Positions 1 to 32,000 of a stretch of DNA of 32,000 nt are shown in pieces. The stretch comes from Chlamydiota bacterium (lineage in GTDB: Bacteria; Auribacterota; JACPWU01), in contig JACPWU010000025.1 of NCBI GenBank assembly GCA_016196885.1, positions 1 through 32,000 of the forward strand. Direction: 5' to 3'. Positions within the stretch are counted from its first letter, which is position 1; the number at the start of each line of letters is the position of its first letter. The notes under the pieces were generated by a model. It saw nothing but the letters and a program-made list of their open reading frames with translations. It was not told the origin of the DNA and ran no database searches. The position numbers and the translations under genes were made by a program.

Positions 1-137
1 ACTTCACATGCTTCGTTACCTAACATGCGCAAAACTCGCTACACGGTGCTTGCCTCTCTTGCTTGTCGTGTCGGGACTAGAAATACTCTGTCTACTTCGC
101 ACCCGATAGCAGACGCCAGCTTCCCTGGCGTACATAT
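1..137 (-). ncRNA. Unassigned leader or small RNA transcribed from the 144-171 promoter and running off the left window edge
   Basis: It lies downstream of a near-consensus sigma70-type promoter. The 5' end carries the hairpin CGCCAG-GGAAG-CUGGCG (about 115-131). No RBS-preceded ORF is present on this strand. The sequence did not match any RNA family I could recognise. Confidence 0.3.
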
Positions 138-143
138 GTATAT

Positions 144-171
144 ATTATACATATTGATATGTATTTTTCAA
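144..171 (-). promoter_or_regulatory. Sigma70-like promoter: TTGAAA, 16 nt spacer, TATAAT
   Basis: On the minus strand the -35 TTGAAA is at 171-166 and a perfect -10 TATAAT is at 149-144, with a 16-nt spacer. It sits just downstream of the stop of the 203-1207 gene. Confidence 0.55.
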
Positions 172-202
172 CCTTTTTCCAATGGGCCATGGTCTACATT
201 TG

Positions 203-1207
203 TTAACTCACCCCATTCTGGGGTTTCCCGTTCGCAAAGCATTCCATGTTTTGGAGAGTGGTTTCGAGGATGCGGTTGAGGGCCTCGCGGCTGTTGAAGG
301 CCATGTGGGGAGTGATAACAACGTTTTCGCGGTGAAGGAGGATATGGTTTTGCACCAGAAGTCTCAATTTCTCTTCGGGGTAATTTTTGGAGAGAAGTTC
401 TTGCTCTTCCTTAATCATTTCCTCTTCCTCTAAGACATCCAAACCTGCACCCCTTAGAATCCCTGAGTCCAGGCCCTGGGTCAGGGCATGGGTATCCACG
501 AGTCCGCCGCGCGCGGTGTTGATGAGAAGAGCGCCTTTTTTAATCGTCTTTATTCTTTCTTCATTGATGAGATGATGGGTCTTGACATTGTAGGGACAAT
601 GAAGACTGATAATATCCGAGGAGGATAAAAGACAATCGAAAGGGACATATTCAAATCCGAGCACCTCGGCCAGAAAAGGCTGCGTCTGCGGATCATGGGC
701 CAGCACCTTCATCCCAAATCCCTTTGCCATTTGAATCACATGAAGCCCGATGCGGCCGGTTCCGATGATGCCCATGGTTTTACCCTTGAGGTCAAATCCT
801 TGAAGTCCTTCTAGGGAAAAGTCCCCGCGGGTTGTTCGAATGTAGGCCTTGTGGACATTGCGAGAGAGCGAAAGGATCAGGGCAAAGGTGTGTTCGGCCA
901 CGGTATTCTCGCCATAGTGGGGGACATTGACCACTTGGATTTTTCGAGCACGACACGTTGTCAAATCGATGTGATCAAACCCCGTGGAGCGTGTCGCGAT
1001 GAGTTGCAATTTGGGAAGGATCTTCAAGTGATCGGCCGAGACCTTGGAATAGATAAAGGTCGAGAGAATTTCGCAGTCGGGAATTTCTTTGAGTAATTTA
1101 AGGGAAATTTCCTCAGGAAAAATCTCGATCTCATGGTCTTTTAAGAATTTACTTTTCTTGAGAAAAGGCTTTTCCGACTGAGACACTTCAAAGAAGGCGA
1201 TTTTCAT
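203..1207 (-). CDS. D-isomer-specific 2-hydroxyacid dehydrogenase family protein (NAD-binding; LdhA/SerA-like)
   Basis: 334-aa ORF with the Rossmann motif GIIGTGRIGLHV and the family-typical NTARGGLVD and ITPHMAF segments. Its start forms a 4-nt ATGA overlap with the upstream cysC stop. Confidence 0.85.
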   Translation of the reverse strand: MKIAFFEVSQSEKPFLKKSKFLKDHEIEIFPEEISLKLLKEIPDCEILSTFIYSKVSADHLKILPKLQLIATRSTGFDHIDLTTCRARKIQVVNVPHYGENTVAEHTFALILSLSRNVHKAYIRTTRGDFSLEGLQGFDLKGKTMGIIGTGRIGLHVIQMAKGFGMKVLAHDPQTQPFLAEVLGFEYVPFDCLLSSSDIISLHCPYNVKTHHLINEERIKTIKKGALLINTARGGLVDTHALTQGLDSGILRGAGLDVLEEEEMIKEEQELLSKNYPEEKLRLLVQNHILLHRENVVITPHMAFNSREALNRILETTLQNMECFANGKPQNGVS

Positions 1208-1776
1208 TTCATTTTTTGGGTCTTTTTAAAATGATCCAATTCCTCAGAGGTTAAATATTTTAATTCATAAAGTTTTGTCATCACTTTTTCCACACTGGAC
1301 TTGACGCTTTCCCCATCTGAATAAACGGTCACTTCAGGGTGAAGGGGTTCTTCATAAGGATCTGAGACCCCTGTAAAATTGCCAATTTCGCCGGCCAAGG
1401 CCTTTTTGTAAAGGCCTTTCACGTCACGTTTGGCCAAAGTCTCAAGAGAACATTTCATATAGACTTCGACAAAATTTTTAATGTCTTTTCGGATTTCTTC
1501 TCGGACTTCTCGGTAGGGAGAAATGGCGGCTGAGATTGCGATCACGTCATTTCGGGAAAGAAGCTTACAGACAAAGCCAATTCTTTGAATGTTGATGTCG
1601 CGGTCAACTTTACTAAAGGTGAGGCCTTTGCTGAGGTGGGTACGGACTTCATCTCCGTCTAAAACTTCGACTTTTTTCCCAAGGCTTTTAAGCTCTTGAG
1701 CAACCGCTCGAGCAAGGGTGGATTTTCCTGAGCCGGATAAGCCTGTGAACCAAAGGGTAAAGTCACCGTTGGACAC
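1204..1776 (-). CDS. cysC: Adenylylsulfate (APS) kinase
   Basis: 190 aa with the P-loop GLSGSGKSTLA, and the size and layout typical of CysC. GTG start with AGGAGA 8 nt upstream. Confidence 0.9.
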   Translation of the reverse strand: MSNGDFTLWFTGLSGSGKSTLARAVAQELKSLGKKVEVLDGDEVRTHLSKGLTFSKVDRDINIQRIGFVCKLLSRNDVIAISAAISPYREVREEIRKDIKNFVEVYMKCSLETLAKRDVKGLYKKALAGEIGNFTGVSDPYEEPLHPEVTVYSDGESVKSSVEKVMTKLYELKYLTSEELDHFKKTQKMK

Positions 1777-1793
1777 TTTTTGATTCTCCTGAT

Positions 1794-2033
1794 TTATTCC
1801 ATCACATCTTGCTCAATGGGCTTTACTTTGATGCCTAAGTCCTTGATGTATTGAACGGCTTTTGTGATTTCACTTTGTTCTCCATCTAATTCTAGTCCAA
1901 TGACGCCAATGCCGGAACTGACCGTGGCGCTTCGAATGTTTGTGACCACTTTGAACTTCTGGCCCACATTGTAAATCACAGGCTCTTTGATGAGCTTCTC
2001 AGGATATGTGATGTAAATTCTGGTTTTTGGCAT
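1794..2033 (-). CDS. NIL-domain (MetN C-terminal-like, ferredoxin-fold) small protein
   Basis: 79 aa. The pattern EPVIYNVGQKFKVVTNIRSATV...GLELDG...IKDLGIKVKPIE matches stand-alone NIL-domain proteins found in sulfur and methionine gene clusters. Confidence 0.7.
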   Translation of the reverse strand: MPKTRIYITYPEKLIKEPVIYNVGQKFKVVTNIRSATVSSGIGVIGLELDGEQSEITKAVQYIKDLGIKVKPIEQDVME

Positions 2034-2084
2034 AAGTTTTTCTCTTTTACGAAGTCCGATGTTCGAAGTACAATGTACGGACTA
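2034..2084 (-). other. Intercistronic hairpin motif, copy 2 (starts at the TAG stop of the MoaD-like gene)
   Basis: Minus-strand RNA reads GUAGUCCGUACAU...GAACAUCGGACUUCGUAAAAGAGAAAAAC, with stem AGUCCG/CGGACU. It is homologous to the motif at 2379-2420. Confidence 0.5.
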
Positions 2085-2366
2085 CAGTCTTTTCCCCCCT
2101 GCAATCGCCGGAACAATGGAAACATCATCTCCCTCTTTAACCGTCGTTTGCATATTCTGTTTGAATCGAATGTCCTCTTCATTGATAAAAATATTGATAA
2201 ATTTTCGAACATTTCCAGAATCATCGCAGAGTCTGGCCTTCATGCCGGGATAATTTTTTTCAAGATTCTCAATGAGCTCTGCAATATTTTTAGCATTCAC
2301 AGGGATTTCGCCCTGTCCGTTGGTCAACTTTCTTAAAGGGGTTGGGACACGTACGATCACTGACAT
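2082..2366 (-). CDS. MoaD/ThiS-family ubiquitin-like sulfur-carrier protein; the GG is followed by a 3-residue tail (KRL)
   Basis: Small beta-grasp-like ORF ending ...VSIVPAIAGGKRL. GGAGG abuts the first ATG (2372) and lies 6 nt upstream of the second ATG (2366), so I prefer 2366 as the start. The track ORF is 2082-2372. Confidence 0.75.
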   Translation of the reverse strand: MSVIVRVPTPLRKLTNGQGEIPVNAKNIAELIENLEKNYPGMKARLCDDSGNVRKFINIFINEEDIRFKQNMQTTVKEGDDVSIVPAIAGGKRL

Positions 2367-2378
2367 TTTCATCCTCCG

Positions 2379-2420
2379 TTTTTCTATTTTGACGAAGTTC
2401 GATGTTCTATGTACGAACTA
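2379..2420 (-). other. Intercistronic hairpin motif, copy 1 (starts at the TAG stop of the ThrC-like gene)
   Basis: Minus-strand RNA reads GUAGUUCGUACAUAGAACAUCGAACUUCGUCAAAAUAGAAAAAC, with stem AGUUCG/CGAACU. The U-A pair here corresponds to a C-G pair in copy 2. Confidence 0.5.
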
Positions 2421-3665
2421 CGGTTTTTTATAGATTCTATCAAATTCAGACAATTTTGCGTCAATCAATTCAGGCACACCCACTTTTCCGACCAGGGCCT
2501 CTTGGGTTTTAAGGCCATTGCCCGTGATCGAGAGCACCACTGATTCGTCAGGTGGGATGTGTCCCGATTGAATTAATTTTTTCAAGGCCGCCAAGGTGAC
2601 GCCACCTGCGGTCTCTGTAAAAATGCCTTCTGTGGTAGCCAAAAGCTTCATCGCTTCTACAATTTCTTCATCCGTGGCTGTAGCGGCCCAGCCTCCGCTT
2701 TCTTTAATGGCTTTAATGGCATAATAGCCATCCGCAGGATTTCCGATGGCCAGGGACTTGGCAATGGTATTGGGTTTTTCAGGTTTGAATAAATCATTCC
2801 CTGCGATCACCGCATGCACAATGGGCCCGCAGCCTTCCGCTTGGGCTCCGTGCATTTTGGTGGAGGCATCTTCCGTGAGACCCAAATCGTAAAATTCCTT
2901 AATGGCTTTTTTTACTTTCGTGATAAGAGAGCCGCCCGCCATGGGGACTACAACGTGTTGGGGGGCACGCCAGCCGAGTTGTTCTAAAATTTCATAGGTA
3001 TAAGTTTTGGAGCCTTCTCCGTAAAAGGGGCGAATATTGATATTCACGAAGGCCCAGCCGTATTTGTCCGCGATTTCGCTACACAGGCGGTTGACCTCGT
3101 CATAATTCCCGCGAATGCCGATGACGTGACTTCCGAAGACGAGGGTTCCGAGAACTTTTCCTTGCTCCAAATCCGCCGGAATAAAAATATAACTTTCGAG
3201 CCCTGCCTGGGCTGCATTGGCTGCGAGGGAGTTGGCCAAATTTCCGGTCGAGGCACAGGCGACGATGTTCATCCCAAATTCTTTGGCCTTGGAAAGGGCA
3301 ACTGCGACCACACGGTCCTTAAAAGAAAGGGTCGGAAAATTCACTGCATCATTTTTGATGTAAAGTTCTTTGAGCCCTAAAGTTTGCGCCAAACGCCTTG
3401 AGCGATAAAAAGGGGTGTATCCCACTTCTAGCCCCACTGTAGGATCTTGATCCAAGGGAAGCAGTTCTTGATAGCGCCACATGGTGTGCTTTCGAGAGAG
3501 AATTTTCTCTCGCGTGAGCACTTTTTTAATGGCGGCATAATCGTAAACCGCTTCTAGAGGTCCAAAACAATCTTCACAGACATGATGAGGTTGGATGGGG
3601 TATTCCTTCAGGCATTCTCGACAGCGTAAACCTAGCGTGTAAGATTTTGTCTTCGTAATAGACAT
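2418..3665 (-). CDS. Threonine-synthase-family PLP enzyme with an N-terminal Cys-rich zinc-ribbon-like segment
   Basis: 415 aa. It carries the PLP-lysine motif LSFKDR, an N-terminal CRECLKEY...CEDC segment and a Gly-rich PLP-phosphate loop region. It is the first gene after the SAM riboswitch. Confidence 0.85.
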   Translation of the reverse strand: MSITKTKSYTLGLRCRECLKEYPIQPHHVCEDCFGPLEAVYDYAAIKKVLTREKILSRKHTMWRYQELLPLDQDPTVGLEVGYTPFYRSRRLAQTLGLKELYIKNDAVNFPTLSFKDRVVAVALSKAKEFGMNIVACASTGNLANSLAANAAQAGLESYIFIPADLEQGKVLGTLVFGSHVIGIRGNYDEVNRLCSEIADKYGWAFVNINIRPFYGEGSKTYTYEILEQLGWRAPQHVVVPMAGGSLITKVKKAIKEFYDLGLTEDASTKMHGAQAEGCGPIVHAVIAGNDLFKPEKPNTIAKSLAIGNPADGYYAIKAIKESGGWAATATDEEIVEAMKLLATTEGIFTETAGGVTLAALKKLIQSGHIPPDESVVLSITGNGLKTQEALVGKVGVPELIDAKLSEFDRIYKKP

Positions 3666-3687
3666 TGTTTATTCCCTTTATACAGGC

Positions 3688-3715
3688 AAAAAAAAACCTC
3701 TTCGATAAGAAGAGG
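3688..3715 (-). terminator. Intrinsic terminator forming the SAM riboswitch expression platform
   Basis: Minus-strand stem CCUCUUC-UUAUC-GAAGAGG is followed by a run of nine U. The 5' arm is complementary to the 3' part of the aptamer (GAAGAUAAGAG), which provides an antiterminator alternative. Confidence 0.85.
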
Positions 3716-3728
3716 TATCAAAGCCTCT

Positions 3729-3844
3729 CTCTTATCTTCCTCTTCATTTTGAAGAGCAGGAGTTAGCACCGATTTCTCACCCGAAGGCTTAAAACGGTTG
3801 CCGTGGCATCTCAGGGCCTTTCCCTCAGCCACTCTGGATAAGAG
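3729..3844 (-). promoter_or_regulatory. SAM-I (S-box) riboswitch aptamer
   Basis: The minus strand reads CUCUUAUCCAGAGUGGCUGAGGGAAAGGCCCUGAGAUGCCACGGCAACC...GGUGCUAACUCCUGC...GAAGAUAAGAG. This shows P1 CUCUUAUC/GAUAAGAG and the conserved GAGGGA, GGCCC, GCAACC and GGUGCUAA blocks. Confidence 0.9.
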
Positions 3845-3858
3845 CGTTATGTGGAGAA

Positions 3859-3888
3859 AATATCTCATAAGGGTGGATAGCATGTCAA
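3859..3888 (-). promoter_or_regulatory. Promoter of the riboswitch-controlled operon (TTGACA, 18 nt spacer, GATATT)
   Basis: On the minus strand TTGACA is at 3888-3883 and GATATT at 3864-3859, placing a start site roughly 10 nt upstream of aptamer P1. Confidence 0.5.
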
Positions 3889-3904
3889 GGTAAAAAACAA
3901 GCCC

Positions 3905-4207
3905 TGTGTAGTAGGATCGTGTATTCAAAAGTGTGTCCTTTTATGGATGCGGGTGGCCCGACAGGGGGTCCCCCGCTGATCGCCAGCAGGTCGAGACTTG
4001 AAAAATGACTCTTCAAAAACCAAACCGAGACCGACCCCACAGGGGCTATAACCTCTGTGCCGTCAGTTGATAAACGAAAAATAACATTTACTACCGCGAT
4101 AAGTTTTTCTGCCACCGGCAGAAAAACTTACCTTGCTGGGTGAGGAGGGACAGGACCCGCCTCCTCTTAAAAGGACACACTTTTAAATACACGACCTGTA
4201 GCAGGAA
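3905..4207. ncRNA. Unassigned GC-rich structured element closed by a long-range helix of about 35 bp
   Basis: Segment 3909-3946 is near-perfectly complementary to 4168-4207, with a core AAAAGUGUGUCCUUUUA / UAAAAGGACACACUUUU. Inner complementary pairs are GAUGCGGGU/ACCCGCCUC and CCAGCAGG/CCUUGCUGG. Internal hairpins are CACAGGGG-CUAUAA-CCUCUGUG and AAGUUUUUCUGCC-ACC-GGCAGAAAAACUU. There is no credible ORF. The strand is unresolved; a U-tract follows the element on the minus strand. Confidence 0.4.
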
Positions 4208-4286
4208 ACCTCTGAGAAACTCGTTAAAGTTGTCATCACATTCGCTTCGCTATTTTATTGTGTGATTTTTTTTAAATGGATGCGTC

Positions 4287-4315
4287 TTGACAAAGTCGTA
4301 CTTACATTGTATATC
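4287..4315 (+). promoter_or_regulatory. Promoter of the antitoxin-doc operon (TTGACA, 17 nt spacer, TATATC)
   Basis: TTGACA at 4287-4292, a 17-nt spacer, TATATC at 4310-4315, and TG at 4308-4309. Confidence 0.5.
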
Positions 4316-4344
4316 TAAAGTAAGTACTAAAGGAGATGATTCCT

Positions 4345-4572
4345 ATGGTTAAACATCTAACCCTTCATGGAAATAGTTCGGCTCTGATCATTGAAAAACC
4401 TATTTTAAAACTTCTTCATATCAGTCAGAAAACACCTTTAGAAGTGACAACAGATGGGCGTAATTTGATTATCTCTCCTGTGAAAAGTTCTAAAAGAGAA
4501 GGCCTAATGAGTATCGCTTTGGCCAAGGTCAATCACAGGCATGGTAAAACCCTTCAATCCTTGGCGGAGTGA
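4345..4572 (+). CDS. AbrB/SpoVT (MazE/Phd-like) antitoxin
   Basis: A small ORF immediately upstream of, and overlapping, a Doc toxin gene. The N-terminal part (LTLHGNSSALIIEKPILKLLHI...LEVTTDGRNLIISP) looks like a swapped-hairpin beta-barrel. AGGAG lies 9 nt before the ATG at 4345, whereas the track start at 4336 abuts the SD. Confidence 0.7.
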   Translation: MVKHLTLHGNSSALIIEKPILKLLHISQKTPLEVTTDGRNLIISPVKSSKREGLMSIALAKVNHRHGKTLQSLAE

Positions 4573-4969
4573 ATCTCTTTTGAAAAATATTCTTTTTCTG
4601 ACCTTGGCAGAAGTGATTATGATCCATAACAATCAGATTGAGCTGTATGGGGGTCGTGGGGGTGTTCAGGATATGCGTCTTTTGGAATCTGCCTTGGCAC
4701 AACCACAGGCCCAATTTCAGGGTGTATGGTTGCATCCCGATCTTTTTGAAATGGCTTCGGCTTATGCTTTTCACATTTCTCAAAATCATCCTTTTATGGA
4801 TGGGAATAAACGTACTGCTCTTGCTTGTGCTCTTGTATTCTTGGAGATCAATGGTGTTTCTCTGTTGGATCCAAAGCAAAAATTATTAGGTGCTGCTTGG
4901 AGGTTAGCAGGAGGAGAGTTGAATAAAAAAAAATTCTCAGATCTTTTGAGAAGTCTTCCTGAAGAATAA
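4541..4969 (+). CDS. doc: Doc (death-on-curing) Fic-family toxin
   Basis: It carries the Doc-type Fic motif HPFMDGNKRTA. The start is uncertain: ATG 4541 overlaps the antitoxin by 32 nt, while TTG 4580 gives the typical MKNILFLTLAEV N-terminus. Confidence 0.85.
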   Translation: MVKPFNPWRSESLLKNILFLTLAEVIMIHNNQIELYGGRGGVQDMRLLESALAQPQAQFQGVWLHPDLFEMASAYAFHISQNHPFMDGNKRTALACALVFLEINGVSLLDPKQKLLGAAWRLAGGELNKKKFSDLLRSLPEE

Positions 4970-7270: not shown

Positions 7271-8482
7271 TTATGCCAAAAATCGAGAGGCCGAGATTCG
7301 ATAAACGTTTTTGCTCTCTAGTTTGCAAATATTTTCTTCTCTGCAAATTTGAACCAGAGGGATGTGATGGAGGGCCTCTTGGGTTTTGTAATGGTGGCGG
7401 GGAATGATCCCATCTGATAGTTTGGTTTCAATGAGAAGCCAGGGTTCTTTGTTTTTAACAATGAGAAAATCGGTTTCTTCTTGCTGTCTATTTCGGATGT
7501 AGAATAACTCGAAAGAGTGCTCGCTTGATTCTGTCCATAAGGATGTTTGTGACAAAAGCTCAACGGCAACGTAATTCTCAAACCGTTTGCCGGGATCTTG
7601 AATGTGCGTCCAGTCGTAAAGATAACATTTGGGGGCCTTCAGAAGGGAGCGCTTGATGTTTTTGGTATAAGGATGGATTTTGAAAGCCAGAAAAAAGTCC
7701 TCCAATCGGCGGAGATAATTTTTAACAGTCGGATGGCTTAGTTCCAGGTGTGAGGCGAGTGAGGACTCCGAAAGAGGACTCCCTGCCATTTCGGGAAGAA
7801 GAAGGTATAGGTCGTACAAGTATTCTTTGTCTATGATTCTGGTGAGAGTTCCGATGTCTTCTTTCAAGACGGTGTCCATGTAATCTTCAGACCATTTGGA
7901 TAAAAATACTTTGGATCCCTTTAGAAAAGGCTCTGGGAAGCCTCCGTATTCAATGAGGGAATCGAGCGTTTCTCGAGCGTTCGGATGGGTATCCATTTTT
8001 TTTTGGATGAAGTCTTGAACTCCCTTGGGTGTCGAGAGAGATTTTTTAGAAGAATGGAATTCAGAAATGGAGAGGGGAAAGAGATGAAATGTGAAGTATC
8101 TTCCTGAGAGGCTGTCTCCCGCCCGTTTGAAAATGTCGAGTTTTACAGATCCTGTTACAATGAAATGGTAGTGGTCGGACAGACTGTCAAAAATCGCTTT
8201 TAGGGCGTTTTTCCATTTCGGGATTTTATGGATTTCGTCGAAGCAAACCCATTGTTTATGAGAACGGGGAGGCCGATCTTCCGTCAAGAAAAGCTGATTT
8301 TCCTTGTATCGGTTTCGGACCGAGCGCAAATCCCATAAATAATACAAAGCCTCTGTTTTAGCTTCTTTGAGTTTAAGCTTAGCCAGAGTGGTCTTCCCGC
8401 ATTGGCGAGGACCTGTGATGAATCTCATTTGTCTCCCCCAGGTCTCAGAGAAGGCGAGTGTAGATAAGGTACGTTCCAGCAT
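7271..8482 (-). CDS. AAA+ ATPase with a DUF4143-type C-terminal domain (COG1373-like)
   Basis: 403 aa with Walker A GPRQCGKTTLAK and Walker B-like VCFDEIHK. The overall layout matches the ATPase_AAA_14 plus DUF4143 family. Confidence 0.8.
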   Translation of the reverse strand: MLERTLSTLAFSETWGRQMRFITGPRQCGKTTLAKLKLKEAKTEALYYLWDLRSVRNRYKENQLFLTEDRPPRSHKQWVCFDEIHKIPKWKNALKAIFDSLSDHYHFIVTGSVKLDIFKRAGDSLSGRYFTFHLFPLSISEFHSSKKSLSTPKGVQDFIQKKMDTHPNARETLDSLIEYGGFPEPFLKGSKVFLSKWSEDYMDTVLKEDIGTLTRIIDKEYLYDLYLLLPEMAGSPLSESSLASHLELSHPTVKNYLRRLEDFFLAFKIHPYTKNIKRSLLKAPKCYLYDWTHIQDPGKRFENYVAVELLSQTSLWTESSEHSFELFYIRNRQQEETDFLIVKNKEPWLLIETKLSDGIIPRHHYKTQEALHHIPLVQICREENICKLESKNVYRISASRFLA

Positions 8483-11733: not shown

Positions 11734-12162
11734 ATGAAGCCTCTCCGGATTGTGATGGATACCAACGTTCTCATTTCCGCTTTACGATCTAATCAAGGGG
11801 CCTCTTTTCAGTTGCTTCGGCGGGTTGATTGTCAGAAATTTCAACTTTGCCTTTCGGTGCCGCTTGTTTTGGAGTATGAGGCATCGGCAAAAGAGATTGT
11901 TTTGGAGACGGCGTTAACGAGGCGTGATATAGATGATGTGATAGATTATGTTTGTACTGTGGCAGAGCCGGTGAAAATATACTTTTTATGGAGGCCTGTT
12001 CTGCGTGATCCAAAGGATGATATGGTTTTGGAGTTGGCTGTCACAGCGGGTTGTGACGCGATTGTAACATTCAATAAATCGGATTTTTTAGAGGCTGTTC
12101 AGTTTAGAATTAAGATTTTAACACCAAAAGAATTGCTGGAAAAAATAGGAGAGCTTCCATGA
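11734..12162 (+). CDS. PIN-domain toxin (VapC-like)
   Basis: 142 aa with the N-terminal acidic motif IVMDTNVLISAL, and later acidic residues (DD, PKDDMVLE, ...DAIVTFN) in PIN-like spacing. Confidence 0.75.
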   Translation: MKPLRIVMDTNVLISALRSNQGASFQLLRRVDCQKFQLCLSVPLVLEYEASAKEIVLETALTRRDIDDVIDYVCTVAEPVKIYFLWRPVLRDPKDDMVLELAVTAGCDAIVTFNKSDFLEAVQFRIKILTPKELLEKIGELP

Positions 12163-28735: not shown

Positions 28736-28802
28736 CTTTAATTTTTTTTGACTTTTTTGACTCGCTTTGTGTCTCTATATTTGTAACAAAGAGAGGGGCT
28801 CC

Positions 28803-31800
28803 ATGAATCATATTAAATACCTTCAAAAAGGGGTTTCTTTAGCCCTTTCTCTTTCCCTTCTTTTTTATGATGTCTCCTTGGGTTCGGCTCAAGAATCCCA
28901 GGGAATGTTGGCGCCTCTTCCTCTGGAAAAGGCCCATTCTGTTGAAAAGCTAAATCTAGATTTGAATCCATCTCTCAAAGAACTTCAAATTCCATCGGAG
29001 TTTGGAGAAGTGATTGAACGTGAGATTATCCCTGATCGGCCTCTTCTTTTTATTATTGAAGACATTCATTGTAATCCAGAGGCGCAAGAAAATATCAAAA
29101 GGATTTTAGAAATATTAGAAAAACAGGTAGAAAAAAAAGAAGGGATGGGTGATGGAGGAAGAATGAGGGAAGAAGGACGCGGGGGGAAGGACGCAAAAGA
29201 ACTTGAGTCGTCTATCGTCCATCGTCCATCCTCTCTTTTTCATGTCTTTTCTGAGGGAGCCGAAGGTCCCATGGAACTGTCTTTTTTTACCGCTTTCCCT
29301 GATAAGGATGCTCTTGCACGAGCTACTGAAAAATTCCTTCAGAAAAGTGACATGGACGGTGTGGAATCTTTTCTGGTGACAGAGGGGCCTGGGAAAACTG
29401 AGGGAGTAGGTGTTGAAGATTTAAAAGCCTATGTCAAAAATGTGGAGTACATGGGAGATTTTCTTGAAGAAAAGGAACTTCAAGAACATGTTTGGCAGAA
29501 TTTGGAAATGGTTTTTAGAAAGTTGAGGGAGAAAATTTATTCTAAGGCGTTAAAATTTTTTTTTGAACAAAAACAAAAATACAGTGACTTTAAAATAGAT
29601 CTCACCACTTATATTCAATCTCTTGAAAAAATATATCAAGAAACCTTTCAAAAAAAGTTTGGAGCTGAGAAGCCGTTTTTGAGGCGCTATCTCAAGCTTA
29701 ACCGCTTAGAGACGCGTCTTGACTCTAGCAGGATTGAACAGGAATATTTGAAGTTTCTTGAAACCTTAGAGAAGAAACTTCCTCAAGAAGAATCTGCTTT
29801 GATTCTTCGTCATGTCCTGGAGCGCAGATTAGGACGTGAAAGCGATCAAGATCATTATACCTTTTTGAGTCGATACGCTCATCTTGTTAAAGGAGCCGAG
29901 ATTCCAAATTTGAAATTGCTCTTCAGACAGATGAAACTTTTGAAAAAGCTTTCGTGGAAAGATCTGGAAGAAGAGATCCATCAAGTTGAAGCGGAGCTGA
30001 CCACGATTTTGACAAAGACAGAACAGGAAAAGAATTTGGTTGCCTTGGAAGGTGATTATGAAATTTTGAAACGAATTATGAGCTTGGAAGGAAAGAGAGA
30101 AGACATCAAAACCGTCTATCGTCACTCGTCGTCCGTAGATCGTACAGAAAACCGTTTCGTCACAGAATTTGTTGCCAAACTCAAAACTTTGTATCTACGA
30201 ACGACGAACGACGAGCAACGAACGACAGCTTTTGAATCCCCCGACTTCGGAGACATTTTTGAAAAGGCAGAAAAATTCTATTCGCAGGTTCTCGACCGCG
30301 ATGAAATTTTTATGAAGAATGCGCTTCATGTTCTTCAAGAGAAAAAGCTTTCTTATGCTGCTTTGGTGATGGGTGGTTTTCATACATCGGGAGTTGAAGA
30401 GACCCTTAAAAAGGCGCATATTGGCTATTGCGTGATTACTCCCCGAATGACTCATTCCGATGACCGAAGTGTTTATTATCAGAAAATGAAGGAAATATTT
30501 GAGGTTCTGGGGGGAATGGATGATGGCCTCAAGAATGCCTCTTTTCCCACACTGAAAAAGATTGCGCTTCATCATTTTATGACTCAAGCTCAGGCGATGG
30601 GCAGAGTGATGATTGAAGAAGCTAGAATTTTGCCCAAAGGTTTCTTTGATGCTTGGGAAAGCAAAGCCCAAGACCTTGCTTCTGTGATCGAAGCATTGGA
30701 AAAAAGCCATCCTGAATCGGCAACCGTTTCAGGAGGTGAGTTTACTCTACAAACCCTTTTAGATCTGACAGAGCTTTCAGCTCCTGAATTAAGAACCCTG
30801 CTTCAAGACAATCAAGTTCGCCCCTTTTTAGAACGTTACATTGAAAATCTTTTGGCGTTCTCCGGGCATGAAGGGAAAGATTGGCGAGTGCTTTTGGGAA
30901 ATGAAGAAGAGCCTCCTCAATTTCCTCCTTCAGGTGGAGGCATTGTAAGTGCGATTAGAAATTCAGGTGCAGGAAACTGGATGGTGCTTTTGGCCCTTTT
31001 ACCTTGGTTGTGGATGACGGCTTGTAAAGGAAATCGAGAGACAAGTTCAACTTCATTAGAACGCGCTCCGCCTGTCGCTTCACCCGTTCAAGCACCTCAG
31101 TCTTTAGAACTTCCGCCTATGCCAGCTTCAGAGCCCTCGGTTTCTCCTGAAAAGGTAGCTCCTGCATTGAATCTTCCGTCCATGCCCACTGAAAGCTCTA
31201 ATCAAACCATTATTCCAAATACCCAAGAGCTAAAAGATAGATTTTGGGCGCAGGAAAATGGGACGCTTCAGCTAAGTGTGGGCGCCGATGGTTGGGTGAC
31301 TTTGACTTATACACTCACAGGCGATTACCTAGGAACCAAAGTATCTATCCCAAGCGCTTTTCGAAACTCAGGTGTGATAGAAGTGGAAATGAAGGGTCCT
31401 GGATCTGTTGAAATTAAGCCGAATGATCAAGGAGGCCCCTTCGTCAGCGAAAACCAAAAACTTCAAGTTAATCCAAACGACTACGGAGGAAGTGTAAGCA
31501 GTCTGACTGTTGGCTTGGTGCAAAGTAAATTAGGAAACAGCAGTGGAACGGTCAAACTTCGCTTTGTTCATCGTCCTTCAGGTGGAGTCATTATTGCTCT
31601 TAAAGAGTGGATGTTAAAATACATCGTCCCCTTAAAATGGGCGCCCTCTTACGACACGCGCATTGCACCTCTCCTGGAAGAATTTCTTTTTGGATTGCCT
31701 CTTGTTGTTGTGAGTTTACTAGGTTTTGACCCTACTTGGGTCCTGGCAGCCAATTTTATTTCCAGATCTCTCTTCTTGCTTCCTCAACACCAAGGAGGGA

Positions 31801-32000
31801 GATGGATTGCAGGTTTAGTGGCTCTTTCGAGTTTTATCTTCACTTCAATTCCCATTTATTTTCATTTGTCGCTGATTGTTTTGCCCGTTGTATGGATGAT
31901 TGCTATTGCAATTCATACGAAAATCAATAAAGGTGACCAACCCAGATTCTTTTCTTCACGATTTTTACGGGCAGAGGCCGTTTTTTCTGCGGCTCTTCTT
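28803..32000 (+). CDS. Large multi-domain exported/membrane protein, 3'-truncated by the window end and not in the supplied ORF track
   Basis: I translated it manually from ATG 28803 (GAGGGG RBS) and found no stop in 1,066 codons through position 32000. It has a signal peptide (VSLALSLSLLFYDVSLGSAQE), an internal TM with a lipobox-like LWMTAC, a Pro-rich linker, and a terminal polytopic region with a PLLEEFLF motif. The track's minus-strand ORFs at 29829-30125 and 30195-30710 are shadows of this frame. Confidence 0.8.
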   Translation, partial: MNHIKYLQKGVSLALSLSLLFYDVSLGSAQESQGMLAPLPLEKAHSVEKLNLDLNPSLKELQIPSEFGEVIEREIIPDRPLLFIIEDIHCNPEAQENIKRILEILEKQVEKKEGMGDGGRMREEGRGGKDAKELESSIVHRPSSLFHVFSEGAEGPMELSFFTAFPDKDALARATEKFLQKSDMDGVESFLVTEGPGKTEGVGVEDLKAYVKNVEYMGDFLEEKELQEHVWQNLEMVFRKLREKIYSKALKFFFEQKQKYSDFKIDLTTYIQSLEKIYQETFQKKFGAEKPFLRRYLKLNRLETRLDSSRIEQEYLKFLETLEKKLPQEESALILRHVLERRLGRESDQDHYTFLSRYAHLVKGAEIPNLKLLFRQMKLLKKLSWKDLEEEIHQVEAELTTILTKTEQEKNLVALEGDYEILKRIMSLEGKREDIKTVYRHSSSVDRTENRFVTEFVAKLKTLYLRTTNDEQRTTAFESPDFGDIFEKAEKFYSQVLDRDEIFMKNALHVLQEKKLSYAALVMGGFHTSGVEETLKKAHIGYCVITPRMTHSDDRSVYYQKMKEIFEVLGGMDDGLKNASFPTLKKIALHHFMTQAQAMGRVMIEEARILPKGFFDAWESKAQDLASVIEALEKSHPESATVSGGEFTLQTLLDLTELSAPELRTLLQDNQVRPFLERYIENLLAFSGHEGKDWRVLLGNEEEPPQFPPSGGGIVSAIRNSGAGNWMVLLALLPWLWMTACKGNRETSSTSLERAPPVASPVQAPQSLELPPMPASEPSVSPEKVAPALNLPSMPTESSNQTIIPNTQELKDRFWAQENGTLQLSVGADGWVTLTYTLTGDYLGTKVSIPSAFRNSGVIEVEMKGPGSVEIKPNDQGGPFVSENQKLQVNPNDYGGSVSSLTVGLVQSKLGNSSGTVKLRFVHRPSGGVIIALKEWMLKYIVPLKWAPSYDTRIAPLLEEFLFGLPLVVVSLLGFDPTWVLAANFISRSLFLLPQHQGGRWIAGLVALSSFIFTSIPIYFHLSLIVLPVVWMIAIAIHTKINKGDQPRFFSSRFLRAEAVFSAALL
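29144..29235 (+). repeat. Intragenic palindrome built from 7-nt tandem repeats (site 1)
   Basis: Left array: GATGGGT GATGGAG GAAGAAT GAGGGAA GAAGGAC GCGGGGG GAAGGAC GCAAAAG. Right array: TCGTCTA TCGTCCA TCGTCCA TCCTCTC, which is the reverse-complement type of the left units. It encodes the low-complexity loop GMGDGGRMREEGRGGKDAKELESSIVHRPSS. Confidence 0.7.
30113..30227 (+). repeat. Intragenic palindrome built from 7-nt tandem repeats (site 2)
   Basis: Left array: CGTCTAT CGTCACT CGTCGTC CGTAGAT CGTACAG (30113-30147). Right array: ATCTACG AACGACG AACGACG AGCAACG AACGACA (30193-30227). The arms are mutually complementary, and the first unit CGTCTAT is shared with site 1. Confidence 0.7.

Follow-up and report, generated by a model that had tools for sequence, protein, structure and literature searches.

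Why should a riboswitch for S-adenosylmethionine (SAM) stand in front of a gene that is annotated as a threonine synthase? The question is raised by a 32,000-nucleotide (nt) stretch of DNA from a Chlamydiota metagenome-assembled genome (MAG; contig JACPWU010000025.1, positions 1 to 32,000 of the forward strand), which is referred to here as the window. Near one end of it, a SAM-I riboswitch precedes genes for a pyridoxal 5'-phosphate (PLP) enzyme of the threonine synthase (ThrC) family, a small sulfur carrier of the ThiS/MoaD type, a stand-alone NIL-domain protein, an adenosine 5'-phosphosulfate (APS) kinase and a D-2-hydroxyacid dehydrogenase. Judged from the sequences, the whole is quite probably explained as a SAM-I 'off' switch governing an operon for homocysteine synthesis of the MetM/MetO type, in which the NIL protein would be an accessory component. 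The core of such a system is not new, since the literature already describes both the pathway and a SAM riboswitch ahead of metM, the combination of SAM riboswitch, MetM-type enzyme and MetO-type carrier having appeared in 2024. What is new is its occurrence in the Chlamydiota together with its wide phyletic spread, its coupling to cysC, a residue signature that tells MetM-type enzymes from ThrC, and the NIL partner.

The riboswitch and the operon downstream

The elements of the locus all lie on the minus strand.

3888-3859 (-): sigma-70-type promoter-like site, TTGACA-18-TG-n-GATATT with an extended -10, a consensus match only
3729-3844 (-): SAM-I (S-box) aptamer with complete P1-P4, RF00162 by Rfam cmscan
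3736-3724 with 3715-3704 (-): antiterminator of the predicted fold, in which the 3' strand of P1 and the linker, GAUAAGAGAGAGG, pair with CCUCUUCUUAUC
3716-3696, then 3695-3687 (-): intrinsic-terminator-like hairpin ACCUCUUC-UUAUC-GAAGAGGU followed by U9, from a terminator scan
2418-3665 (-): ThrC-family PLP enzyme, 415 amino acids (aa), a candidate MetM-like homocysteine synthase (PALP, TIGR00260)
2082-2372 (-): ThiS/MoaD-family carrier of the MetO/CysO type, 96 aa, ending ...PAIAGG-KRL (PF02597, E 1e-14)
1794-2033 (-): stand-alone NIL-domain protein, 79 aa, free of cysteine (PF09383, E 4e-13)
1204-1776 (-): APS kinase CysC, 190 aa (PF01583, E 5.5e-58; NF002059)
203-1207 (-): D-isomer-specific 2-hydroxyacid dehydrogenase of the D-lactate dehydrogenase type, 334 aa (PF02826, PF00389)

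The aptamer matches the whole of the RF00162 model (positions 1-108 of 108) and scores 93.6 bits (E 1.8e-21), the gathering score being 44.4; no other Rfam family passes its threshold anywhere in the 32 kb. The cmscan search returned exactly the span 3729-3844 that a preliminary description, made from the sequence alone, had assigned to the aptamer. The promoter-like site, found in a consensus scan, lies 15 nt upstream of the aptamer, agrees with the consensus at 10 of 12 positions and has a TG before its -10 element.

Between the aptamer and the first gene lies what the preliminary description had called a terminator platform (3688-3715), an assignment that is borne out by the hairpin with its U9 tract at 3716-3687 and extended by a competing antiterminator. 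The hairpin has an 8-bp G+C-rich stem, a 5-nt loop and a computed energy of -11.1 kcal/mol, and is the only terminator-like site on the minus strand in a scan of positions 1-4400. The antiterminator is the minimum-free-energy fold of the isolated platform (3685-3740), at -15.6 kcal/mol as against -11.1 for the terminator. CCUCUUCUUAUC forms the 5' arm and loop of the terminator hairpin, and the two structures are, by sequence and energy, mutually exclusive. This is the classical S-box design, from which we infer a transcription-attenuating SAM-I 'off' switch ahead of a methionine-branch operon. At low SAM the 3' strand of P1 would pair with the 5' arm of the terminator, so that the antiterminator forms and RNA polymerase reads through; when SAM is bound, P1 would close, the terminator would form and the operon would be turned off.

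The five open reading frames (ORFs) downstream of the riboswitch are separated by gaps of 45, 48, 17 and -4 nt, the start of the dehydrogenase gene overlapping the stop of cysC by 4 nt, and an AAGGGA motif is found 8 nt upstream of the ATG of the first gene. The gene order given in the preliminary description, ThrC-like enzyme, carrier, NIL, cysC and dehydrogenase in tight or overlapping array, agrees with these ORFs and their domain matches.

For comparison, 85 related loci were assembled, 80 of them from a scan of one genome per GTDB species, which reached at least a dozen phyla and whose matches included no Chlamydiota. Hosts of the family include Chlamydiota, Planctomycetota, Verrucomicrobiota, Nitrospirota and Zetaproteobacteria. 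A covariance model built from three aptamers found a SAM-I aptamer upstream of the ThrC-like gene in 46 of the 79 loci whose upstream sequence is long enough for a judgement. All 46 are on the strand of the gene and directly upstream of it, with a ThiF gene intervening in five loci. The ten weakest matches were confirmed by the Rfam model at 47.7-79.2 bits, as were the aptamers of the window, of loci L003 and L007, and of the Nonomuraea locus L088 described below. The aptamer fold is conserved amongst 40 aptamers from upstream of homologous genes. When these were aligned independently with MAFFT and read against the Rfam-derived structure, 94.4% of the pair cells held standard pairs, against ~43% with the partners slid by one column, and 14 pairs had changed on both sides.

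Four further chlamydial contigs, whose sequences are 79-85% identical, have the SAM-I aptamer, ThrC-like, ThiS and NIL genes in equal order, with the APS kinase gene next wherever the contig continues (L003, L092, L094). The flanks differ in these three, and L093 is partly syntenic, with BipA upstream. An equivalent terminator/antiterminator architecture is found in the chlamydial relatives L003, L092 and L094, and also in L007.

The threonine synthase homologue

The 415-aa enzyme is a PALP-domain protein (E 1e-69) with an N-terminal CxxC...CxxC motif that resembles a Zn ribbon, and is identical to a protein deposited as 'threonine synthase' from a Chlamydiota MAG. If that name were correct, the riboswitch would set the balance between threonine and methionine synthesis at O-phosphohomoserine, and some other function would fall to the carrier and the NIL protein. 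The enzyme scores 296.4 bits with TIGR00260 (thrC) against a cut-off of 167.1, and hence annotation by profile hidden Markov model alone would call it a threonine synthase. The closest solved sequences and folds are likewise all threonine synthases, at ~35% identity over the catalytic domain (31-37% when aligned by fold), and a fold search with the AlphaFold model, of mean predicted local distance difference test (pLDDT) score 69.8, recovered threonine synthases too. The window enzyme has the PLP lysine in common with them, as well as most residues that define the fold; its K116 aligns with K61 of Thermus ThrC, in agreement with a check of the numbering. TIGR00260 does not separate MetM-type proteins from ThrC, and searches by sequence or fold found no MetM structure in the PDB.

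A different picture is given by a neighbour-joining tree of 100 sequences. The window enzyme, 84 relatives and a gene from Nonomuraea gerenzanensis form one clade, whereas the ThrCs of B. subtilis, Aquifex, Thermus and M. tuberculosis, together with that of P. megaterium from a hom-thrC-thrB operon, form the other. Comparison of the alignment columns finds 22 that are fixed differently between the MetM-like clade and the ThrC group. Residues T88, S155, N157 and R160 of Thermus ThrC correspond to L143, N210, R212 and Y215 in the window enzyme. Every one of the 86 clade members has L143, N210 and Y215, whilst the T, S and R are kept in 12 of 12 ThrCs; R212 and K303 are new invariant residues of the MetM-like clade. 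In ThrC the retained phosphate of the substrate is said to steer water to the beta carbon, and three of the exchanged residues presumably belong to the site that holds this phosphate. A remodelled phosphate site would fit a switch to gamma-replacement. Such clade-invariant changes also offer a simple annotation rule for separating MetM-type enzymes from ThrC.

With the class I ThrCs of known structure (6cgq from B. subtilis, 2zsj from Aquifex, 1uim from Thermus and 2d1f from M. tuberculosis) the window enzyme shares its fold, its PLP lysine and, presumably, O-phosphohomoserine as substrate. It differs from them in the extra N-terminal segment of ~60 residues that bears the CxxC...CxxC motif, in its separate clade and changed signature residues, and in the lack of a hom/thrB context.

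The Nonomuraea member of the clade stood proxy for actinomycete metM, in place of the Streptomyces albulus sequence. It was found by tblastn of a plasmid collection, at locus L088 of NZ_LT559118.1, where a SAM-I aptamer (68.7 bits) is followed by the ThrC homologue, a 91-aa carrier ending AVAGG and groEL; no NIL gene follows the carrier at this riboswitch locus. Riboswitch, enzyme and carrier thus stand as reported for metM/metO of S. albulus. The encoded ThrC homologue has the N-terminal CxxC...CxxC motif and is 52% identical to the window enzyme. The Nonomuraea aptamer runs right up to the start codon, an arrangement suggestive of translational control. The preliminary description had argued that the window enzyme makes a methionine precursor and not threonine, and had pointed to its placement against ThrC and MetM-type sequences as one way to check this. 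Both the separation from proven ThrCs and the grouping with a carrier-linked, riboswitch-linked gene of Nonomuraea speak for that argument.

NZ_LT559118.1 is filed as a plasmid in PLSDB yet is chromosome-sized (11.85 Mb, with 10 annotated features). It has three ThrC-family matches, and the results given here concern the riboswitch-linked one.

Further evidence comes from seven Nitrospirota loci (L029, L036, L043, L056, L065, L071 and L083), in which MetM-like, ThiS and NIL genes are followed by a second ThrC-family gene, as at 7950-10905 of L036. The second gene encodes ~360 aa and groups with bona fide ThrC of the Aquifex type. The presence of two presumed consumers of O-phosphohomoserine in one cluster argues for two functions. 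That the window enzyme is a genuine threonine synthase is, on this evidence, very unlikely: its clade is separate from the proven ThrCs, both types stand side by side in the Nitrospirota, at three positions of the presumed phosphate site the ThrC residues are replaced throughout the clade (100%), and a CysO-type carrier adjoins the gene in 75 of the 85 loci. Moreover, an 'off' switch responding to SAM would lower threonine synthesis just when methionine abounds, which makes no regulatory sense for a true threonine synthase but does for a homocysteine-forming enzyme.

MetM-type enzymes are routinely annotated as threonine synthase, the window enzyme included, and in consequence methionine prototrophy is mispredicted in many uncultured lineages.

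A haloarchaeal 'thrC' on a megaplasmid of Natrinema caseinilyticum (L089, 3977-5236) has the same N-terminal CxxC...CxxC motif at ~40% identity, and other haloarchaeal plasmids carry similar CxxC...CxxC 'thrC' genes. In the tree L089 falls between the MetM-like clade and the genuine ThrCs; no carrier gene adjoins it, and its residues opposite T88, S155, N157 and R160 (A, A, N and Q) fit neither group. As it has the motif without a carrier and lies outside the clade, the N-terminal CxxC motif alone is not diagnostic of MetM.

The carrier, the NIL protein and the probable route to homocysteine

In Streptomyces albulus, the ThrC homologue MetM and the carrier protein MetO convert O-phosphohomoserine to homocysteine (Hasebe et al. 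2024, Appl Environ Microbiol 90:e01247-24, as described in citing work), which matches the Streptomyces route that the preliminary description had named. A SAM riboswitch lies upstream of S. albulus metM, according to a 2025 paper. The outline of the pathway in GapMind (2026) has four steps, MetO, Mec, MoeZ and MetM; it assigns the protease role to Mec, describes MetM as dependent on MetO thiocarboxylate and remarks that MetM is often misannotated as threonine synthase. The window unit resembles this system in having a ThrC-homologous PLP gene directly upstream of a small ThiS/MoaD carrier and a SAM riboswitch before the enzyme gene, and in needing an E1-type activating enzyme (MoeZ) and a JAMM hydrolase (Mec) encoded elsewhere. 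It differs in its chlamydial MAG host, in the addition of NIL, APS kinase and D-2-hydroxyacid dehydrogenase, in a carrier that ends GG-KRL where the published carrier ends GG, and in the use of an intrinsic terminator where the Nonomuraea aptamer abuts the start codon; NIL is not amongst the four steps of the GapMind outline. The preliminary description had judged the combination not to be a textbook arrangement. This holds for NIL and cysC, which lie outside the available MetM/MetO descriptions, but not for the riboswitch-metM core, which is published, and the placing of cysC under an S-box has a precedent in B. subtilis.

The same-strand neighbours of the ThrC-like gene point in a similar direction. 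ORFs were called in all 85 loci and classified by phmmer against reference proteins from the first loci, with the following result.

ThiS with PAIAGG motif: 75/85 loci
NIL: 57/85 loci
CysM-like PLP enzyme: 46/85 loci
ThiF: 37/85 loci
Prok-JAB: 17/85 loci
TusA: 17/85 loci
Sulfite reductase: 10/85 loci
ATP sulfurylase: 7/85 loci
3'-phosphoadenosine 5'-phosphosulfate (PAPS) reductase: 7/85 loci
APS kinase: 5/85 loci
D-2-hydroxyacid dehydrogenase: 2/85 loci, both chlamydial

The carrier gene is usually within tens of bases of the ThrC-like gene. Homologues of ~70% identity in Thermodesulfobacteriota and other phyla sit in richer clusters, which hold CysM-like, Prok-JAB, ThiF, TusA, sulfite reductase, ATP sulfurylase, PAPS reductase and APS kinase genes. 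This spread, and the usual SAM regulation, suggest that the pathway reported from Streptomyces in 2024 is a widespread route to homocysteine.

The best solved relative of the window carrier is M. tuberculosis CysO, from the CysM-CysO complex (3dwg_C, E 2.9e-20), and an Amycolatopsis ThiS/MoaD protein is its other near solved relative. The Gly-Gly is present but capped by KRL and a stop. Three residues after the GG imply that trimming is needed, and capped forms of this sort need a protease. Across the loci the carrier ends GG-stop in 24, none of which has a nearby JAB; the GG is followed by 1-12 residues in 36, including the window (KRL), is fused to NIL in 12 and is fused to ThiF in 3. The ThiS-GG-ThiF fusions are at 12084-13154 of L013, 9211-10329 of L026 and 9232-10299 of L074; all three loci also have a stand-alone NIL gene, directly downstream of the fusion in L026 and L074.

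In the CysO-CysM-Mec system of M. tuberculosis, a carrier thiocarboxylate, loaded by a MoeZ-type E1, serves a PLP enzyme that acts on an O-phospho amino acid, and a JAMM hydrolase is needed as well. By analogy the window carrier would hand on sulfur from its thiocarboxylate to a PLP enzyme whose substrate is likewise an O-phospho amino acid, and in 46 of the 85 related loci a CysM-like gene is present to share the carrier. The kinship with CysO raises the alternative that the window enzyme does the work of CysM, making cysteine, and not homocysteine, from O-phosphoserine and the thiocarboxylated carrier. It would suit this alternative that the related loci are rich in genes for cysteine synthesis and sulfate assimilation and that the window has no separate CysM-like gene. 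Where a CysM-like enzyme does occur, however, it stands beside the ThrC-like one and shares a single carrier with it, which argues for two products. The window enzyme belongs to the threonine synthase family and not to CysK/CysM, and its scaffold is that of an O-phosphohomoserine enzyme, the substrate to be expected here. A SAM riboswitch, present in 46 of 79 loci, speaks for the methionine branch, and the published activity of MetM is homocysteine formation. Cysteine synthesis by the window enzyme is thus unlikely.

The favoured route to homocysteine would run as follows. The carrier would lose its KRL to expose the Gly-Gly, and would then be adenylated and sulfurated by an E1 of the ThiF/MoeZ type. 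The MetM-type enzyme would take O-phosphohomoserine, eliminate its phosphate and, instead of adding water at the beta carbon, add sulfur at the gamma carbon, with the C-terminal thiocarboxylate of the adjacent MetO/CysO-type carrier as donor. The resulting carrier-homocysteine adduct would be hydrolysed by a JAMM enzyme of the Mec type, by analogy with CysO, CysM and Mec. A SAM-regulated operon for de novo homocysteine synthesis points to more biosynthetic autonomy in this environmental chlamydial lineage.

Another chemistry may be considered, in which the enzyme sulfhydrylates O-phosphohomoserine directly. Plant and some bacterial enzymes can use free sulfide on this substrate, and the carrier would then be dispensable or would serve some other thiolation. 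Many related loci, and the window, have no nearby E1 or JAB, and in one study sodium sulfide was tried as sulfur donor in imitation of MetM activity. Carrier adjacency is nevertheless near universal, at 75 of 85 loci, E1, JAB and TusA genes recur in the neighbourhoods, and the dependence on MetO thiocarboxylate that the GapMind outline gives to MetM is at odds with a dispensable carrier. Direct use of sulfide is accordingly held to be quite improbable.

The NIL protein (PF09383, 49.3 bits against a cut-off of 24) has counterparts in about two thirds of the loci, 57 of the 85. In the 12 ThiS-GG-NIL fusions the two parts are joined through a short basic linker; 11 of these loci have a JAB gene, and the contig of the twelfth is truncated. 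A profile search of 1.84 billion representative proteins shows the operon-linked NIL subfamily to be compact, with 345 clusters at E <= 1e-10. Its top matches include ThiS-NIL, JAB-NIL (P0196, P0225) and NIL-NIL (P0144, P0145) fusions. P0238 appears to be a MetM-like enzyme with a C-terminal NIL, 60% identical to the window enzyme, although it is truncated at its N-terminus and might be an artefact. Fusion of NIL to up to three members of the carrier system is strong evidence of a physical and functional link between them. An apparent PALP-ThiS-NIL fusion, P0170, looks like a chimeric or misassembled fragment and was left out of the counts.

What the NIL protein might do is suggested by another member of the domain family, the C2 domain of the E. 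coli methionine importer subunit MetN. The profile of the operon-linked NIL aligns with MetN residues 269-339 (E 1e-13), and the TNIRxA motif of the NIL family falls on NNIISA of MetN (N295...A299). In MetN, N295...A299 contact L-methionine and set the register of the beta-sheet, N295 hydrogen-bonds the bound L-methionine and the N295A exchange abolishes binding (PMC6233128). The window NIL keeps the asparagine equivalent to N295, as its N32; it is a stand-alone protein of 79 aa, with relatives fused to the carrier, to JAB and in one case apparently to a MetM-like enzyme, and not the tail of an ABC ATPase. Cysteine is not conserved in the family, and since the window protein lacks it altogether, that protein is not a persulfide relay. 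As an accessory subunit of the carrier system, the NIL protein would most likely bind methionine or homocysteine. The further proposal that a cysteine-free NIL is a third functional component of MetM/MetO- and CysO-type systems, binding the methionine or homocysteine moiety, is put forward tentatively, as a possibility to which somewhat less than even weight is given. Within it, NIL could be an allosteric feedback sensor or a recognition module for the JAMM step, in which latter case it would present the carrier-Gly-Gly-homocysteine adduct, or the carrier-GG-NIL precursor, to the hydrolase.

NIL proteins had been linked in the preliminary description to homocysteine synthesis in anaerobes. They are indeed tied to it genetically, but in a different pathway: the DUF39/NIL-ferredoxin/COG2122 system of methanogens and Desulfovibrio makes homocysteine from aspartate semialdehyde (PMC5764234). 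There, NIL is fused to a 4Fe-4S ferredoxin, whereas the window NIL has neither ferredoxin nor cysteine, is not accompanied by DUF39 and is partnered by a ubiquitin-like carrier system. A search of the literature found no described link of NIL to ThiS or MetM, which is weak evidence of absence. If the proposal made above is right, NIL would have one shared role in the MetN importer, the DUF39 pathway and the MetM/MetO-type pathway. The linkage gives a concrete handle, open to test, on the part that NIL plays in making homocysteine, which a 2018 study still called unknown (PMC5764234).

Several points weigh against a MetM/MetO-type operon with an accessory NIL. One is the TIGR00260 score already given, well above the threonine synthase cut-off. 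Another is that the phosphate-holding role of T88, S155 and R160 in Thermus ThrC is an assumption drawn from the literature on the Thermus structures. The link to characterised MetM runs through an actinomycete proxy and through secondary descriptions. Neither a ThiF/MoeB-type E1 nor a JAMM protease gene is present in the 32 kb window. A SAM-I aptamer is lacking from 33 of the 79 evaluable loci, and nine of these that were searched contained no other class of riboswitch. The AlphaFold model of the NIL protein has low confidence (pLDDT 59.7), and the NIL-containing loci are known from their sequences alone.

APS kinase, dehydrogenase and surrounding genes

The fourth gene encodes a clear CysC, scoring 265.9 bits with NF002059 (cut-off 244) and 212.5 with TIGR00455 (cut-off 138.7). 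Its role would most simply be sulfate activation for the supply of sulfide: PAPS formed by CysC would enter assimilatory sulfate reduction, and the resulting sulfide would be loaded on the carrier. In other phyla, CysC accompanies ATP sulfurylase, PAPS reductase and sulfite reductase beside the ThrC-like/carrier system. The dehydrogenase is closest, amongst solved structures, to the D-lactate dehydrogenases 8i5z, 3kb6 and 5z20 (E ~1e-69). It is encoded in the window and in L003/L004 and is absent from L094, and because only some of the chlamydial relatives have it, the enzyme is probably peripheral to the pathway, though co-transcribed with it.

A SAM-I switch ahead of such genes has a precedent. 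The S-box units of B. subtilis include cysH-cysP-sat-cysC-ylnDEF and yoaDCB (PMC2743287), so that an APS kinase gene and yoaDCB are both under SAM-I control. They are in separate transcription units there, in a Firmicute with classical met genes. We take yoaD to encode a 2-hydroxyacid dehydrogenase, so that a gene of this family, too, would have a precedent under an S-box.

The presence of an APS kinase and a dehydrogenase in one operon allows the unit to be read in yet another way, as one for sulfonate synthesis. A ThrC homologue akin to cysteate synthase would add PAPS-derived sulfite, and the dehydrogenase would act on a sulfo-hydroxyacid. Cysteate synthases are ThrC homologues, a ThrC-like structure of the capnine pathway (9k3c) is amongst the fold matches, and the window enzyme matches the cysteate synthase profile TIGR03844 weakly; at 80.9 bits this match is far below the cut-off of 324.9. 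The dehydrogenase is missing from L094, and APS kinase occurs in only 5 of the 85 loci. A sulfur carrier, moreover, has no role in sulfite chemistry, and a SAM riboswitch fits methionine synthesis. Sulfonate synthesis is for these reasons regarded as extremely unlikely, and assimilatory supply of sulfide to the carrier is the preferred role for CysC.

Nothing plainly connected with the operon was found elsewhere in the window, where there are a Fic toxin module, BipA, asparagine synthase, polysaccharide genes, MutY and a long domain-less ORF; no hom, thrB or DUF39 gene was found in the 32 kb. Upstream of the operon, a 450-bp gap between its promoter and the divergent Fic module contains a perfect 14-nt inverted repeat, TAAGTTTTTCTGCC / GGCAGAAAAACTTA, with a 3-nt spacer (4100-4130). 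Neither strand has a U tract after it, and the repeat may serve as an operator or mark where an inserted element ends. The Fic module itself (4336-4969, plus strand) has a toxin-antitoxin-like layout, in which a 78-aa ORF overlaps the start of a gene for a 142-aa Fic/Doc-family protein. In the chlamydial relative L093, BipA lies immediately upstream of the riboswitch without a Fic module, which suggests that the Fic pair and the palindrome may be an insertion in the window genome.

At the far end, an open frame of at least 1080 codons (28761-32000, plus strand) is cut off by the window edge. Its N-terminus, MNHIKYLQKGVSLALSLSLLFYDVSLGSAQ..., resembles a signal peptide, and no Pfam family matches at E <= 0.01; the product would seem to be a large secreted or surface-exposed protein of unknown family. 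Amid the housekeeping and polysaccharide genes lie an AAA_14/DUF4143 ATPase gene (7271-8482, minus strand) and a gene for a PIN_3-domain protein (11734-12162, plus strand).

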